This document shows positions 10,681 through 63,290 of a DNA stretch of 64,000 bases, piece after piece. The position numbers were made by a program, and so were the translations under genes. The notes beneath the pieces are model-generated. The model did no database searches. It was not told the origin of the DNA and saw nothing but the letters and a program-made list of their open reading frames with translations. How positions within the stretch are numbered: the stretch's first letter is position 1; every line of letters begins with the position of its first letter. The stretch is from an uncultured Chloroflexia bacterium (lineage in GTDB: Bacteria; Chloroflexota; Dehalococcoidia; DSTF01; WHTK01), in the NCBI GenBank assembly GCA_963732945.1, contig CAVTBL010000003.1:467084-531083 (forward strand). The letters run 5' to 3'.

Positions 10681-10808
10681 AGGCATAGACATAAGCATAG
10701 ACACAGGCTTTAGCAGGCAGTCAGGCCGGCCCTCTGCCGCCATAGTCCGGTGTATTTCCGCCGCCTGTCGTCCGACTCCCGACATGATCTATGTCTATGT
10801 CTATGCCT
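10681..10808. repeat. CATAG-family inverted repeat (arms 10681-10707 and 10789-10808, 81-nt spacer)
   Basis: AGGCATAGACATAAGCATAGAC versus the reverse complement of CTATGTCTATGTCTATGCCT. The first 13 nt are identical. Confidence 0.8.
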
Positions 10809-10821
10809 GCGCCCTCCTCCC

Positions 10822-12076
10822 ATGCCGTCTCCTGACGCCGGCGCCGAGCTGGTCGCGCGCCTCGAGCGTCACGTCTCGCCGCCCGCGCTCGCGGCCCTGC
10901 GCGCCGCCGAAGCAATCTGCCGCGATCGAGGCATCGGGCTGTTCCTGGTCGGCGGTACGGTGCGCGATCTCGTGCTCGAGCGCGAAGGCTTCGACATCGA
11001 TTCTCTCGATCGAAGCCGAGGTCGAACCGGTCGCCCGTGCCCTCGCCGAGGCGACCGGCGGACGCACCGTCCTGCATCCGAGCTTCGGTACCGCCAAGGT
11101 CTCGGGCCGCGACTTTCAGCTCGACCTCGCCCGAACCCGTCGCGAGACCTACGCTCATCCCGGCGCGCTGCCCGCCGTCGAGCCCGCCACTCTGGCCGAG
11201 GACCTGGCGCGCCGCGACTTCACGATTAACGCGATCGCCCTGCGTTTGGCCCCGGAGGCGGGAGAGATCGTCGACCCGTATCGTGGCATGGACGACATCG
11301 CGGACGGGCTGCTGCGCGTCCTGCACGAGCGCAGCTTCCAGGACGACGCCACGCGTATCCTGCGCGCCCTGCGCTACGCCTCGCGACTCGGTTTCAAGCT
11401 CGCGCGCCAGACCGAGGCGCTGGTCCGGCGCGACCTCTCGTACCTGCGCAGCCTTAGCGGCCCGCGCATCCGTCGCGACCTTGCGCTGCTGTTCGACGAT
11501 ACGGGCGCTGTCGAGGGCACGCTGCTGGGTCAGCGCCTCGGCGTGCTCGAGGCGATTCATCCCGCCCTGCGCCTCAGCGACGCCGTCGCGGGCCGCTGGC
11601 GCGACGCAATCGCCGGCCCGACGCTGGCCCCGCGTGACGAGCTCGGCTTCTGCCTGATCGCCGACCCGCGCGACGAAGGTACCGCAGCCTCGGTGTCGCA
11701 GTGGCTGCACCTCACGGGCCGCGTGCAGCACGCCCTCGAGCACCTCGTGCGCCTGCGCGAGCGTTCGGCGGAGGTCGCAGGCCTGCGATCCAGCCCCGTG
11801 GAAGCCGTCGACCTGCTGGACCACGTTGCGCCCGCCGCGATCTGGGCCCTGGCGCTGCTCGCGGCGGGCGACGTGGCCGAGACCTGCTTCGCCTACCTGC
11901 GCGAGTGGCGTCACGTGCGCCCAGAGCTCAGCGGCAGCGACCTGCTGGCGCTGGGCATGGCGCCCGGCATGCAGGTCGGCGAGACGCTGCGCCGCCTGCG
12001 CTACGAACGCCTCGACGGCCGCGTTACGAGTCGCGAGCAGGAGGTAGCTATCGTGCGAGAAGCGCTCGGCGGTTAG
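10822..12076 (+). pseudogene. cca: CCA-adding enzyme / tRNA nucleotidyltransferase, frame broken near 11001 (net +1)
   Basis: The N-terminal part (MPSPDAGAELV...LFLVGGTVRDLVLEREGFDID) is in the frame of ORF 10750. The rest (LSIEAEVEPVARALAEA...RRDFTINAIAL...) is in the frame of ORF 10664. Junction at GAC ATC GAT [t] CTC TCG ATC GAA. Confidence 0.8.
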
Positions 12077-12088
12077 GATGAAGGCAAC

Positions 12089-12472
12089 ATGCCAGCGAAA
12101 CGCCGACAACCCAAAGACAAGACCAACCTCGAGTGGGACTTTTTCTCGTTCCCCGTCCTGTTCGCGCTGAGCTTCGGTCTCCTCCTGGGCCTCCTGCTCT
12201 ATCCGCTGGGGGTCCTGCTCCAGCCGCTGGGGCTCATTTCCTTCGTCGCCGCTCTCTTTGGCACCTCCTATTGCACGGCGCACGTAATCAGCAACTGGGT
12301 GTCGAACCGTAAAGACAGGAAGAGCCGCGAAAAGCAGGACGAAGACGAGCGCGAGCGTCGTGCCCTAGCCGCGCGTGCGGCCCGCGCCGAGGCCTCGGCC
12401 GTCGCGGCAGCTAACGCCGAACCGCGGGAGCCGCGCCTGCCCCGCAAACGCCGACGCCGCAGCCGCAGCTAA
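12089..12472 (+). CDS. Hypothetical membrane protein with a highly charged C-terminal tail
   Basis: 127-aa ORF with two hydrophobic segments followed by a Lys/Arg/Glu-rich tail. No family recognised. Confidence 0.5.
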   Translation: MPAKRRQPKDKTNLEWDFFSFPVLFALSFGLLLGLLLYPLGVLLQPLGLISFVAALFGTSYCTAHVISNWVSNRKDRKSREKQDEDERERRALAARAARAEASAVAAANAEPREPRLPRKRRRRSRS

Positions 12473-12515
12473 CGACTGAGCCGATCGCAATTTCACAGAT
12501 TGCGTTTCGCCATGC

Positions 12516-12545
12516 TTGACATGCAACCAAATAGTTGCCTAACAT
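12516..12545 (+). promoter_or_regulatory. Candidate promoter with embedded ArsR-type operator
   Basis: TTGACA, 18 nt, TAACAT. The spacer contains the palindrome GCAAC-caaata-GTTGC. Confidence 0.5.
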
Positions 12546-12557
12546 CCGTAACGGCAA

Positions 12558-60912: not shown

Positions 60913-61004
60913 TCTCGCGCTCAACCAGACTCCTCACGGCCGGTTCCATCAAACGCTCCGACGGCTGATCACTCGACGCGCAGGACGCGCGCCATGCCAG
61001 TGGC

Positions 61005-62534
61005 TCAGACGGAGCGGCTGCGCTGACGGTACTGCACCGCTTCTGCGATATGTGCCGTCGCAATGTCGTCGGCGCCCTCGAGGTCTGCGATCGTGCGCGC
61101 AACTTTCAGGATGCGATGAAACGCACGCGCCGATAACGACAGGCGCTCCGTCGCCAGCTTCAAGAACGACCGCCCGGACTCATCGAGCACCGTCTGGCAG
61201 AACTCCCGCACGTCGGCGGGCGACATCTCGGCGTTGGCGCCGGCGGGGCGTTCAACGAATCGCTGCGTCTGCAGCTGGCGCGCGCGGTCGACGCGCTGCC
61301 TCACGCAGGCAGACGATTCGGCCGGCGTCAACGCCGAGAGCTTGTCGTAGTCGATGCGGGGCACCTCGACGAACAGATCGATGCGGTCCAGCATTGGCCC
61401 CGAGATGCGCCGCTGGTAACGCGACACCGTCGACTCCGAGCACACGCAAGGCTTCACCGGGTCGCCGTAATTTCCGCACGGGCACGGGTTCATCGCCGCG
61501 ATCAGCATGAAGTTCGCCGGGAACGTCACGCTGCCCTGCGCCCGGCTGATCGTCACGATGTGGTCCTCGAGCGGCTGGCGCAGCACCTCCAGCGTCTGCT
61601 GGCCGAACTCCGGCAGCTCGTCCAGGAACAGTACGCCTCGATGCGACAGGCTAATTTCGCCCGGACGAGGCTGGCGGCCGCCGCCGACAAGGCCCGCCTG
61701 CGATACGGTGTGATGCGGCGCCCGGAAGGGACGCTGCGTGATCAGCGGCAGGTCGCGCGGCAGTAGCCCGCCGACGCTGTAGATGCGCGTCACCATCAGC
61801 GCCTCTTCCGGTGTCATCGCCGGTAGAATCGACGGCAGTGCGCGCGCCAGCAGCGTCTTACCGGCTCCCGCCGGACCCACCATCAGCAGGTTGTGCCCAC
61901 CCGCCGCCGCGACCTCGAGTGCGCGCTTCACGTGCTCCTGGCCGCGTACTTCCGCGAAGTCTGTGCCTACGTACGGCTGCGATTCGCTGAGGCGCTCGCC
62001 CGACGGCACGAACGGCGACAGCGGCTCGTCACCGGAGAGGTGGTTCACCAGCGCCGCAAACGTCTCGACGGCATAGACGCGCACGCCTTCGACCAGCGCC
62101 GCCTCGGCCGCGTCCGATGCAGGCACGTAGACGTCGCGCATGCCACGATCGCGCGCCAGGCTCACCATGGGCAAGATGCCGTGCGTCGACCGCAGCCGTC
62201 CGTCCAGCGACAGCTCACCGAGGAATAGCGACGTCGATACGTCTGCCAGGACCTGCTCCGACGCGATCACTACGCCGACCGCGATCGGCAGGTCGAAGCT
62301 CGGCCCCTCTTTCTTGATGTCTGCAGGCGCCAGGCTTACCGTGATGCGCTTGCGCGGGAACACGCAGCCGGAGTTGCGCACCGCCGACCGCACGCGCTCC
62401 TTCGCCTCCGTTACCGCCGTATCCGGCAGCCCGACCACGTTCACGGCCGGCAGGCCCGGCAGCAGATCGACCTCGACCTCGACCAGCTCGCCCTCGAGCC
62501 CTACTACCGCCGCTGAGTAAACCTTTGCCAGCAC
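61005..62534 (-). CDS. comM: YifB/ComM-family Mg-chelatase-like AAA+ ATPase
   Basis: 509 aa: MLAKVYSAAVVGLEGELVEVEVD..., Walker A GPAGAGKT and the C-terminal ChlI-type domain. Confidence 0.92.
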   Translation of the reverse strand: MLAKVYSAAVVGLEGELVEVEVDLLPGLPAVNVVGLPDTAVTEAKERVRSAVRNSGCVFPRKRITVSLAPADIKKEGPSFDLPIAVGVVIASEQVLADVSTSLFLGELSLDGRLRSTHGILPMVSLARDRGMRDVYVPASDAAEAALVEGVRVYAVETFAALVNHLSGDEPLSPFVPSGERLSESQPYVGTDFAEVRGQEHVKRALEVAAAGGHNLLMVGPAGAGKTLLARALPSILPAMTPEEALMVTRIYSVGGLLPRDLPLITQRPFRAPHHTVSQAGLVGGGRQPRPGEISLSHRGVLFLDELPEFGQQTLEVLRQPLEDHIVTISRAQGSVTFPANFMLIAAMNPCPCGNYGDPVKPCVCSESTVSRYQRRISGPMLDRIDLFVEVPRIDYDKLSALTPAESSACVRQRVDRARQLQTQRFVERPAGANAEMSPADVREFCQTVLDESGRSFLKLATERLSLSARAFHRILKVARTIADLEGADDIATAHIAEAVQYRQRSRSV

Positions 62535-62699
62535 CTGCTACCTGCCAATCCAACTGTCACGCGCAAACGATTCGCATATCTGTTCTATTGCGACTATAGG
62601 AGGGCCTTAGGAAGCAGTCAACGGCTTTCGCCGAATAATTCGAAAATTTGTTCGTATTCGTGTGTTATGTCGACGAGCCGTCCATTCGCGGACAGGGTA

Positions 62700-62729
62700 A
62701 CGGGGCGAAAACCGTAGCTTCCGCCCCGT
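62700..62729 (-). terminator. Hairpin downstream of the DUF6458-like gene
   Basis: ACGGGGCG, 14 nt, CGCCCCGT, an 8-bp stem. No U-tract. Confidence 0.4.
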
Positions 62730-62752
62730 AAATGCGCCGACAGTCGTGTTGC

Positions 62753-63085
62753 CTAGCGGTGTACGTGCCGTTCTCGCTCGACATAGGCCGAGTCGGTGCC
62801 GTCGTCTTCGTAGACCACATCGCGCGTGTTGACGCGACGGTGCTCGTGCGGCGACGTGACGTTCGGGCTGTAGTCCATGTCCTCATAGTAGGTATCTCGG
62901 TGCCAGATCGAAGCCAGCGAACCAAGAAAGATGAACGACATCGCCAGCCCGATGAGCCCCACCACCAGCAAGATGTAGCCGATGGAGGTAACGTCGACCT
63001 GCGACGACCGCACATTCACCGCGAAGGCCAGCACGGCACCCGCGGCGATCAACATGAGGCTTGTCGCTATTCCCGTTCCACGCAT
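62753..63085 (-). CDS. Small membrane protein (DUF6458-like)
   Basis: MRGTGIATSLMLIAAGAVLAFAV..., with two TM segments and an acidic His/Tyr-rich tail. ATG at 63085 after AAGGAGG. The track start at 63196 is an extension. Confidence 0.7.
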   Translation of the reverse strand: MRGTGIATSLMLIAAGAVLAFAVNVRSSQVDVTSIGYILLVVGLIGLAMSFIFLGSLASIWHRDTYYEDMDYSPNVTSPHEHRRVNTRDVVYEDDGTDSAYVERERHVHR

Positions 63086-63248
63086 GACACGCCTCCTTTC
63101 TCGATTGCAGCGTAGACCCGCACAACCTCCTGCCGAATCAAGCGAAGCCGGCCCGCATTTCGACAGGCTTTCGGAAGCGCGTCGAAACCGCAACAAGTGA
63201 AAACCTGAACCAACGGCAAAAGACGAAGGGCCCGCCTTTCGACGGACC

Positions 63249-63290
63249 CTTTGCTCGTTTGCTGGTTTGTTTCTTTGTCTTTTGTTCTCG
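63249..63290. repeat. CTTTG-family T-rich repeat abutting the stop of MetE-like paralog 3
   Basis: CTTTGCTCGTTTGCTGGTTTGTTTCTTTGTCTTTTGTTCTCG. It contains the same 19-mer as 46768-46786. Confidence 0.85.

Follow-up and report, generated by a model that had tools for sequence, protein, structure and literature searches.

Repeat-armed extragenic hairpins in an uncultured soil Chloroflexota lineage and their possible place in the terminator niche

Tandem repeats of 6-8-nt units occupy ten gene junctions in a 64-kb stretch of chromosomal DNA from an uncultured soil Chloroflexota bacterium (contig CAVTBL010000003.1, positions 467,084 to 531,083; the whole stretch is hereafter called the window, and its repeat loci elements A to J). 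The repeats are AT-enriched, belong to three families, and form opposed arms round a loop at eight of the junctions. In this study, the composition, placement and folding potential of the elements were investigated and compared with the corresponding junctions of related genomes. We give about an even chance to the reading that they are lineage-specific extragenic hairpins with simple-sequence-repeat stems, grown by slippage, in a niche shared with terminators and repetitive extragenic palindromic (REP) sequences.

The guanine-plus-cytosine (GC) content of the window is 62-70%. Its nearest public sequences are metagenome-assembled genomes (MAGs) labelled "Dehalococcoidia bacterium" (Chloroflexota) by their submitters, and the host belongs to this uncultured soil lineage of 66% GC. 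Housekeeping genes in the window include SMC, FtsY, RNase III, a DinG-like exonuclease-helicase, FolD, the large-type signal recognition particle RNA and three tRNAs. The gene map was built from third-position GC content and a Pfam scan of roughly 30 open reading frames (ORFs), and the coding mask used for inside and outside counts is approximate. Close relatives were reached via the 90% protein cluster of the DinG-like protein and via P0123. L206 and L208 are one 533-kb contig (ENA ERZ25039495) with about 90% nucleotide identity to the window, and L207 (NCBI GCA_036279235.1) has about 87%. L201 is a k141 contig, and L001, L002, L003 and L015 are GTDB representatives.

Repeat families at gene junctions

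A preliminary description of this DNA had reported three motif families recurring only between genes, and every site cited in it holds the repeats described. Family 1, CATAGRCATAG with at most one mismatch, has 28 matches against 0.42 expected in a shuffle control, all confined to five loci (10.7k, 13.8k, 16.1k, 45.2k and 57.2k); left arms are always plus-strand matches and right arms always minus-strand matches. Family 2, TTTGYYNNTTTG, is found seven times against 0.04 expected by the same control, with every match at 46.8k, 48.1k or 63.25k. Family 3, CTTGNAGCTTG (unit GCTTGNA), gives 14 matches against 2.5 expected, and 11 of these lie at 18975-19146 and 37684-37817. CATAGG hexamers fall 18 times outside the coding mask, where 4 are expected, and 3 times inside it, and the family hexamers are 4- to 5-fold enriched outside the mask. 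Counts so far above expectation uphold the existence of families confined to junctions; the confinement is not strict to the last base, since an arm of C takes in the final 8 codons of the DinG-like gene, and the first unit of F takes in a GNAT stop codon. The arms have a GC content of 33-57%, in agreement with the earlier statement that they are AT-rich relative to their surroundings, and most of the longest inverted repeats of the window come from these loci. Periods of 6, 7 and 8 nt coexist among the arrays, a wider range than the 6-7 nt first described.

The anatomy first described, two inverted arms round a GC-rich spacer of 14-85 nt, holds for eight junctions; B and G are single T-rich arrays. 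D has three arms, the outer pair 115 nt apart, and loops span 15-115 nt overall and show no relatedness between loci. Pairing to the reverse-complement consensus is at least 82% in A, C, D, F and H, and 71-76% in E and I. Three elements (B, F and I) lie between convergent genes, five (C, D, E, H and J) follow the stop codon of a gene whose downstream neighbour is on the same strand, and A and G are situated in divergent promoter regions. The arms abut stop or start codons as had been claimed: the distance from stop codon to element start is 0-7 nt in eight of the ten loci, and minus-strand stop codons are only 1-3 nt from the ends of the T-rich arrays B, I and J.

Arms at different loci have unit order in common. 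The innermost, loop-side unit is CATAGA in 7/8 family-1 arms; CGTAG stands at the outer end of 4/9 and is itself the stop codon in two of these. All five family-3 arms (in D and E) align to (GCTTGNA)4, the right arm of E is identical at 27 of 31 positions to the right arm of D (19122-19154), and a 19-mer, TTGCTCGTTTGCTGGTTTG, is common to G and J. The arms of one element may differ in length, with 50 versus 27 nt in F and 69 versus 31 nt in I: (CATAGG)8.3 and (CCTTTGC)9.9 are the longest arrays and also the purest, and each is longer than the arm opposite.

Folding, polarity and terminator likeness of the elements

Folding of each locus, a check proposed in the preliminary description, gave unequal results. 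As RNA, A, C, F and H fold on both strands at -44 to -70 kcal/mol (z -4.2 to -8.1), D reaches z -3.8/-2.9, the whole-locus folds of E, I and J are weaker (z -0.8 to -2.8), and those of B and G are not significant (z about -1 and about 0). Polarity is uniform: in 8/8 paired loci A outnumbers T in the left arm and T outnumbers A in the right arm (for example, A/T counts of 17/8 versus 4/14 in F and 18/2 versus 0/24 in J), and the single arrays B and G are T-rich, that is, of the right-arm type. Owing to this symmetric arrangement, each strand reads an A-rich arm, a GC-rich core and a U-rich arm in succession.

The four strongly folding elements are all of family 1. Element F (45180-45278) lies between convergent genes and consists of (CATAGG)8.3 at 45180-45229 (Tandem Repeats Finder, TRF, score 100, 100% matches) and a TCTATG-type arm of 4.5 units at 45252-45278, with a mini-hairpin GGGATTAGTCCC in the loop. 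The TAG stop of the GNAT gene is within the first CATAGG unit, 5 nt separate the right arm from the stop codon of a Rieske gene on the minus strand, and the fold reaches -58.0/-45.3 kcal/mol (z -7.9/-7.0). Element H (57148-57271) separates two Meth_synt_2-like paralogues; its left arm (57148-57193) opens with the TAG stop of the first, and its right arm (57229-57271) ends 15 nt ahead of the ATG (57287) of the second, which has no Shine-Dalgarno (SD) sequence. The outer stem of H is GTAGGGCACAG/CTGTGCTCTAC, the inverted repeat I17 covers 21 nt at 95%, and the fold is -70.2/-65.2 kcal/mol (z -7.7/-8.1). Element C (16104-16175; arms 16104-16130 and 16146-16175, 15-nt spacer) sits inside the minus-strand DinG-like/GNAT operon, where its 5' arm contains the DinG-like stop (16155-16157) together with the codons mentioned above and its 3' arm contains the GNAT start or has it at its base; it folds with -47.6/-44.0 kcal/mol (z -5.0/-4.7). 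Element A (10677-10813) has a left arm GCGTAGGCATAGACATAAGCATAGACACAGGC (10677-10708), a right arm GATCTATGTCTATGTCTATGCCTGCGCC (10786-10813) and a branched loop of 77 nt; it occupies the divergent region bounded by the RNase III promoter and a PolyA_pol/CCA-type gene that starts at 10821. Its fold is -64/-66 kcal/mol (z -4.2/-4.8), and its inverted repeat I11 covers 25 nt at 88%.

Family 3 has a period of 7 nt (GCTTGNA/CAAGCNN) and is represented by D (18974-19154) and E (37679-37825). Read on the minus strand, arm L of D (19154-19122) immediately follows the stop codon of a 140-aa gene and is succeeded by arm M (19071-19044), the probable DinG promoter with an extended -10 TGCTACGAT (19037-19029), and arm R (19006-18974), which lies in the DinG 5' untranslated region (UTR) and reaches the SD sequence GGAGG and the GTG at 18962. 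The locus contains the inverted repeats I1, I4 and I12; it folds as a whole with z -3.8/-2.9, and L-M alone gives -50 kcal/mol (z -1.8). In E the left arm (37679-37706) directly adjoins the FolD stop codon, an 84-nt loop and the right arm (37791-37825) follow, a promoter-like site lies downstream at 37860, and the fold has z -1.8/-2.8.

Family 2 looks like intrinsic terminators. Element J (63190-63287) has an A-rich arm (63190-63226), a GC hairpin at about 63228-63249 (within GAAGGGCCCGCCTTTCGACGGACCCTT) and a T-rich arm (63249-63287), which a gap of 3 nt parts from the stop codon of a minus-strand gene at 63291. Right after the gene end, the minus strand runs from a GC hairpin of 11 bp into UUCGUCUUUUGCCGUUGGUU (-39.3 kcal/mol, z -3.4). 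Element I (48114-48272), at a convergent junction, combines an A-rich left arm (48114-48144, CAAACAAGCAAAG twice), a GC hairpin at about 48145-48172 and (CCTTTGC)9.9 at 48204-48272 (TRF score 138, 100% matches); the array and the stop codon of a nitroreductase gene on the minus strand are 3 nt apart, the minus strand reads GC hairpin then UUUGCUUGUUUGUACUUUGCUUGUUUG, and the whole locus folds with z -1.7/-2.2. Element B (13794-13830), also between convergent genes, is the single array GTATGCCTATG(TCTTTG)4CT, to which TRF assigns a period of 6 and 4.3 copies with 100% matches, (TGTCTT)4.3. The array falls 1 nt short of the stop codon (13831) of an M20 peptidase gene on the minus strand, and its partner at 13749-13766 is weak. 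Element G (46767-46796, plus strand) is the single array CTTGCTCGTTTGCTGGTTTGCTCGTTTGCC with period 8 by TRF; it lies in a divergent region about 20 nt upstream of a -35-like hexamer of a luciferase-like monooxygenase (LLM) gene, with promoter-like sites on either side (46815, plus; 46723, minus).

Two plain terminators of the window provide a standard for comparison: GAGCCCGG..CCGGGCUC with the tail UCUCUUUGC at 28935-28968, and AAGCCCGG..CCGGGCUU with the tail GUUUCGUU at 38258-38290. Family 2 (J, I and probably B) has the same TTTGC/GTTTC tail style, and its 3' arms contain 43-62% T and 0-2 A. A GC hairpin followed by a U-rich tail, as in the plain terminators, makes the family-2 arrays look like A- and U-tracts expanded into repeats, and the family as such looks, by its sequence, like bidirectional intrinsic terminators. 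A GC-rich stem-loop stands just past the stop codon in J and I (minus strand) and long stems start from the stop codon in F, C and H; A and G, at divergent junctions, have no such position. The first reading had denied any resemblance to simple terminators, which the hairpin and U-rich tail of family 2, the A/U polarity throughout, and the terminator found at junction F in L208 (see below) do not support. A simple terminator scan caught the plain terminator at 38258 and missed all repeat-armed loci because it required 5 T in 8 bases.

Several observations concern the neighbourhood of these elements. Upstream of the DinG-like gene (19020-19043, minus), all relatives examined (L001, L002, L201, L202 and L204-L207) conserve the extended -10 (TGCTACGAT-like) and the CGCGCATCTGTTCGA next to it, probably the DinG promoter and the start of its 5' UTR. 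Upstream of RNase III (10450-10660, minus), the promoter TTGACAC..17..TATGAT and a leader of roughly 150 nt, CATCAGGCTACCACCG...GGAGG..GGGTGACC, are conserved in L001, L002, L015 and L206; in L015 the leader is broken by about four tandem copies of a repeat of roughly 65 nt (L015 ~5200-5500). The window has three Meth_synt_2-like paralogues of the MetE C-terminal type (56002-57150, 57287-58457 and 63291-63998), and the first two are a tandem duplicate of about 78% nucleotide identity split by H. On the minus strand, (CCTTTGC)9.9 reads (GGGCAAA)n, a quadruplex-type motif of G3 plus a 4-nt loop, and the CAAGGGN arms of L201 (3279-3305) have the same property. A PIN-domain toxin and Rv0623-like antitoxin pair (5404-6155, minus) occupies a lower-GC patch between FtsY and SMC.

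Turnover of the elements among relatives

Gene order round the DinG-like gene is kept in relatives at 66-82% protein identity. The syntenic junctions of L001, L002, L003 and L015 hold no such arrays and carry other repeats; relatives at 74-82% protein identity either are without the elements or have other units, and a search for the window motifs in relatives at or below 82% protein identity gave chance matches in genes only. Relative to L001, L002 and L015, element A is inserted sequence that parts the start of the gene from a conserved block and does not overlap the conserved RNase III operon promoter (TTGACA..TATGAT), and a degenerate copy is present at the same place in L206.

Junction D is occupied in several lineages. 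In L201 and L204 (about 80% identity) it carries opposed 7-nt arrays, CAAGGGN/NCCCTTG and ACAAGSA/TGTTGCN, which hold CAAG/CTTG in phase, are two-armed, and are bounded by the stop codon on one side and the conserved extended -10 of DinG on the other. The window, L206 and L207 each have three arms, unit numbers differ (about 4.5, 4.5 and 8 in arm L), and in all three genomes the L-M hairpin stands between the stop codon and the conserved DinG promoter round loops that are non-homologous. The units differ from lineage to lineage yet are complementary within each. Junction C likewise has an element in the window, L206 and L207, built from different units and with a different stop codon within the arm; the C-terminus of the DinG-like protein is ..GRGHSAQA* in the window, where it runs into the arm of C, and ..EEWLG/S* in relatives.

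The remaining junctions were compared mainly with L208. At E it has a hairpin from other units that are still complementary, with a 13-nt loop versus 84 nt in the window (z -3.9). At G it has 2 units versus 3.5, beside the same promoter, and a 1-kb GerE gene parts the array from the GC hairpin; the window's hairpin GGGCCGTTCGGCCC at about 46725-46738, which the preliminary description had paired with G, is not part of the element. Junction B of L206 holds the seed AGCAATAGACAACC only, which indicates that the (AAAGAC)4 of the window is a recent expansion. At F, L208 has a canonical bidirectional terminator AAGAAGGGGCG..CGCCCCUUCUU (L208 7300-7335) and a REP-like hairpin instead of the element, and at H it has a palindrome GTAGGGGCGCAGCATGCTGCGCCCCTAC of GTAG type and a GGAGG SD sequence, which the window is without. 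The outer stem of H, GTAGGGCACAG, resembles the GTAG palindrome GTAGGGGCGCAG of junction H in L208. Junction I of L208 carries a single array of another family, (AGCTGAA)4.6. Comparison with related genomes had been suggested at the outset, and from the close relatives it follows that place and pairing are moderately conserved, and that unit sequence, unit number and loops are not. Canonical terminators, REP-type palindromes and repeat-armed hairpins can each occupy one and the same slot.

Array number is also variable, with 14 arrays in the window lineage versus 4 in its relative. Other Chloroflexota (Oscillochloris, Roseiflexaceae and Herpetosiphon among them) have 7-nt arrays that are mostly unpaired, and arrays in the window's clade are as a rule paired into hairpins. 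A metagenome scan with (CATAGG)3 matched 120 contigs of 24%-70% GC, mostly coding repeats or unrelated microsatellites, and an opposed arm was present in one high-GC contig only (L191). A bare hexamer array is therefore not diagnostic, and the scan gave no further copies of the element.

Other repeats were encountered in the same genomes. Long arrays of 6-8-nt units, unpaired and with up to about 17 copies, occur in Chloroflexia, Oscillochloris and Roseiflexaceae (L008 10-122 and 8876-8978; L022 13507-13624; L052 1527-1706; L017 1480-1570 and 2000-2110), and in L017 two neighbouring loci have a GC hairpin followed by a U-rich (GGTTCTN)n array. A dispersed repeat, CCGTTCGTCCTGAGCCTGTCGAAGGAC, at 44560-44595 also occurs in L001 (~12870), L015 (~1310), L202 (~12835) and L208 (~7340); it is conserved down to 74% protein identity and is often found at junction types like those of the repeat-armed hairpins. 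A GIY-YIG nuclease ORF (39555-39893, minus; Pfam E 1.4e-14) is flanked by a palindromic repeat half on each side (39529-39900), GCGAAGCAACCTCGG.. and ..GATTGCTTCG..CTCGCAACGAGG. Repeat-armed hairpins of L204 (about 9755-9890 and 12880-12990) and of L207 (about 3430-3470) carry this palindrome family inside their loops.

Explanations weighed and known systems compared

In the reading that we favour, two opposed arrays of a 6-8-nt unit, A-rich on the 5' side and U/T-rich on the 3' side of either strand, enclose a short GC-rich core. The arrays would lengthen, shorten and diverge through replication slippage, and their complementarity would be maintained either by selection for the hairpin or by intrastrand template switching. 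Transcripts of the elements would form 20-30-bp stems starting at a stop codon or a few bases from it, and the elements fill the slot used by canonical intrinsic terminators and REP-type palindromes in relatives. Action as bidirectional terminators and as barriers to decay at the 3' end appears most likely; within operons (C and H), partial terminators or hairpins for processing or stability may be involved. A signature of slippage is seen in the longest pure arrays, which exceed their partners, in unit numbers that vary among close relatives, and in the growth of B from a seed.

A number of results weigh against this reading. The divergent promoter regions that hold elements A and G are not places where a transcript should end, which argues against a universal role, and strong termination at C and H would silence the next gene because these lie in apparent operons that leave no space for a promoter downstream. 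In families 1 and 3, T makes up only 29-52% of the 3' arms, and these have no uninterrupted U run. When hairpin stability was compared by strand (G-U versus A-C), no consistent bias to the transcribed strand was detected; stability on that strand is better for D and H and worse for C and E. Four of the nine junctions compared differ in kind in a relative of ~90% identity, which also fits neutrality. In addition, slippage alone fails to explain the shared unit order (D/E and G/J), the CATAGA loop-side ends, and the likeness of the H stem to a GTAG palindrome; these suggest copying between loci or a REP-related origin.

A possible, less probable account is that the elements are a neutral or mildly selfish by-product without cellular function: slippage repeats would spread in tolerant intergenic DNA, and quasi-palindrome correction would symmetrise their arms. 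Rapid turnover, with non-homologous loops between relatives of ~90% identity, suits this account, as do the unequal arms of F and I, the presence of elements in divergent regions, the different array counts of the window lineage and its relative, and the stop codon (C) and SD sequence (H) overwritten by arms. It does not predict the uniform A-5'/U-3' polarity in the window, the preference for starts at stop codons, the pairing kept at junction D in several lineages despite different units, or the substitution of a canonical terminator by an element. The shared unit order and recurrent arm ends noted above (CATAGA innermost, CGTAG outermost), the likeness of the H outer stem, and the arms found on both sides of the conserved core at junction D, an insertion-like arrangement, would instead point to a mobile element of REP/REPIN or miniature inverted-repeat transposable element (MITE) type, whose arms were copied by a transposase (a REP-associated tyrosine transposase, RAYT, or an IS200-like enzyme) or by hairpin-targeted insertion and then altered by slippage. 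We regard this as unlikely: the copies have unrelated loops, no duplication of a target site was seen, an arm taken alone is not palindromic except for AAGCTT in family 3, no transposase was found among the roughly 30 window ORFs scanned against Pfam, and the motifs are absent from relatives at or below 82% protein identity. Similarly improbable in our view is a self-propagating hairpin module of a kind not described before, in which repeat arms would be copied to both sides of intergenic hairpins and would displace terminators and REP palindromes. In the CATAG/CTATG unit, the 5' arm supplies a stop codon and the 3' arm a start codon, so that its stem would set stop and start at its bases; at C and H, where the SD sequence is lost, termination and reinitiation might be coupled across the hairpin, or RNase III-type processing might occur.

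Still less probable is a role as periodic arrays for protein binding, either by a single-strand nucleic-acid binder at ~7 nt per monomer, such as a cold-shock anti-terminator on the U-rich arm, or at the DNA level as a UP-like AT tract or as a cruciform absorbing supercoils. CAAG/CTTG recurs in 7-nt phase with other positions variable at junction D of the window, L201, L204, L206 and L207, G is placed a short way upstream of a -35-like hexamer in the window and in L208 alike, and B contains GTCTTTG, which we take to be a preferred heptamer of CspB. One CspB protein is bound per heptamer (PMC4679880). Against such a role, one genome holds the unrelated units CATAGG, CCTTTGC, GCTTGNA and TTGCTCGT in three periods, relatives have other units, and no candidate protein was identified. 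An artefact of assembly or sequencing in a long-read MAG has next to no probability. Several window genes are split between two frames, namely ispE (19573-20470), nadC (39901-40771), the 140-aa gene (19146-19572) and a 2-hydroxyacid dehydrogenase gene (23292-24270), and these apparent frameshifts suggest a long-read assembly with residual indel errors; such errors, rather than pseudogenes, are probably the cause. Split genes are found in relatives too (nadC in L208 and the DinG-like gene in L206). The elements themselves recur at the same junctions in independent assemblies (L206/L208, L207 and L201) from other samples and pipelines; carriage at about 87-90% identity rules the artefact out.

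If the slippage-grown hairpin reading is true, the hairpin slot at transcript ends could be filled interchangeably by canonical terminators, REP-type palindromes and simple-sequence-repeat hairpins, with turnover visible between genomes about 90% identical. The elements would then offer a natural series for the birth and replacement of terminators in high-GC bacteria without clean U-tracts. A little-studied phenomenon of 6-8-nt repeats, known from Xanthomonas, cyanobacteria and Beggiatoaceae, is extended to Chloroflexota. For the annotation of MAGs, the arms matter as they lengthen or shorten ORF ends, give spurious starts and stops, and are likely sites of assembly and copy-number error.

The elements were compared with catalogued and described classes. 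None of the elements matches an Rfam family at gathering score; a search at E<=1 gave only a chance miRNA match over D (27.7 bits versus 90). Elsewhere in the window, a sub-threshold match to Rfam whalefall-1 at 53220-53254 (26.3 bits, gathering score 37, E 0.012) falls on a G-rich palindromic repeat, CCTCTCCTGGGGGAGAGGGTTAGGGTGAGGGGA, at a convergent junction. The earlier exclusion of CRISPR, MITEs and classical REP sequences or bacterial interspersed mosaic elements (BIMEs) stands, as the anatomy fails the tested defining features of each. CRISPR was rejected because the units are contiguous, 6-8 nt long and in opposed arrays, not 23-50-nt repeats with spacers; MITEs were rejected since loops are unrelated between loci and between close relatives and no flanking direct duplication was seen; and tRNA- and riboswitch-related readings were rejected on anatomy. 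The elements resemble bidirectional intrinsic terminators in having an A-rich 5' side, a GC hairpin and a U-rich 3' side on both strands, a scheme that J, I and B fit, and in positions between convergent genes; they differ in that their flanks are repeat arrays of 27-69 nt, that the stems of families 1 and 3 are made of arrays with modest U content, and that two loci lie in divergent promoter regions.

REP, BIME and REPIN sequences are conserved palindromes of 20-40 nt with a GTAG/CGTC tag, mobilised by RAYT and acting in mRNA 3'-end protection and partial termination. They are likewise intergenic, often right after stop codons, form RNA hairpins, and take terminator-like slots in or between operons. 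The arms described here are instead tandem 6-8-nt units that are not self-complementary (AAGCTT of family 3 excepted) and enclose unrelated loops. A regular-expression search for GTAGG..CCTAC palindromes found none in the window and one each in L208 and L204, and no Y1 transposase or RAYT was present among the roughly 30 ORFs scanned in the window, which is 64 kb of a contig of at least 605 kb.

The preliminary description, essentially right in its account of the repeats, did not recognise them as a described class; a claim of an unrecognised class is overstated given precedents in Xanthomonas, cyanobacteria and Beggiatoaceae. Our literature search found no description of such repeats for Chloroflexota. 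The elements are long simple-sequence repeats by definition, being tandem units of 1-11 nt beyond chance length. Such repeats are mainly intergenic when the unit length is not a multiple of 3, and all arrays of the window lie at junctions. In Beggiatoaceae and cyanobacteria, TAACTGA heptamer arrays are abundant in intergenic DNA near coding-sequence boundaries, and a post-transcriptional role has been proposed (MacGregor 2015, PMC4679880). The window arrays are similarly intergenic and close to the edges of coding sequences; TAACTGA arrays differ in being direct repeats upstream of starts, with a single inverted case and one unit across phyla. Cyanobacterial short tandemly repeated repetitive (STRR) heptamers and long simple-sequence repeats reportedly grow by polymerase slippage, according to work attributed to Mazel et al. 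in 1990 and Mrazek et al. in 2007. STRR sequences share with the window amplified 7-nt units in non-coding DNA at many loci, lineage-specific units and slippage growth; given units of 6, 7 and 8 nt and a host that is no heterocystous cyanobacterium, the window elements are an analogue and not a member. STRR arrays are mostly single, paired ones are reported as few in Nostoc (PMC4692102), and the Nostoc heptamer GGGGAYT is of the G3-plus-4-nt-loop type, as is (GGGCAAA)n of the window.

The closest described case is that of the inverted heptamer pairs of Xanthomonas, where intergenic GGGAATC arrays form 70-75 inverted pairs per genome that are capable of stem-loops, with position mostly conserved between related species, length and sequence variable, and function unknown (Rehm et al. 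2015, PMC4692102). The window likewise has intergenic arrays of ~7-nt units in a high-GC genome, arranged as convergent pairs on opposite strands, and its (GGGCAAA)n at 48204-48272 is of the same G3-plus-4-nt-loop type as GGGAATC. Unlike Xanthomonas, it combines several unrelated units and periods of 6, 7 and 8 nt in one genome; most units are not G-rich and form no quadruplex (CATAGG, GCTTGNA and TTGCTCGT are without G3 runs), the arms touch or overlap stop and start codons, and the host is a Chloroflexota MAG lineage. Uniform A/U polarity and exchange with canonical terminators further set the elements apart from the described heptamer repeats. They are a local variant of repeat types known from Xanthomonas and cyanobacteria.

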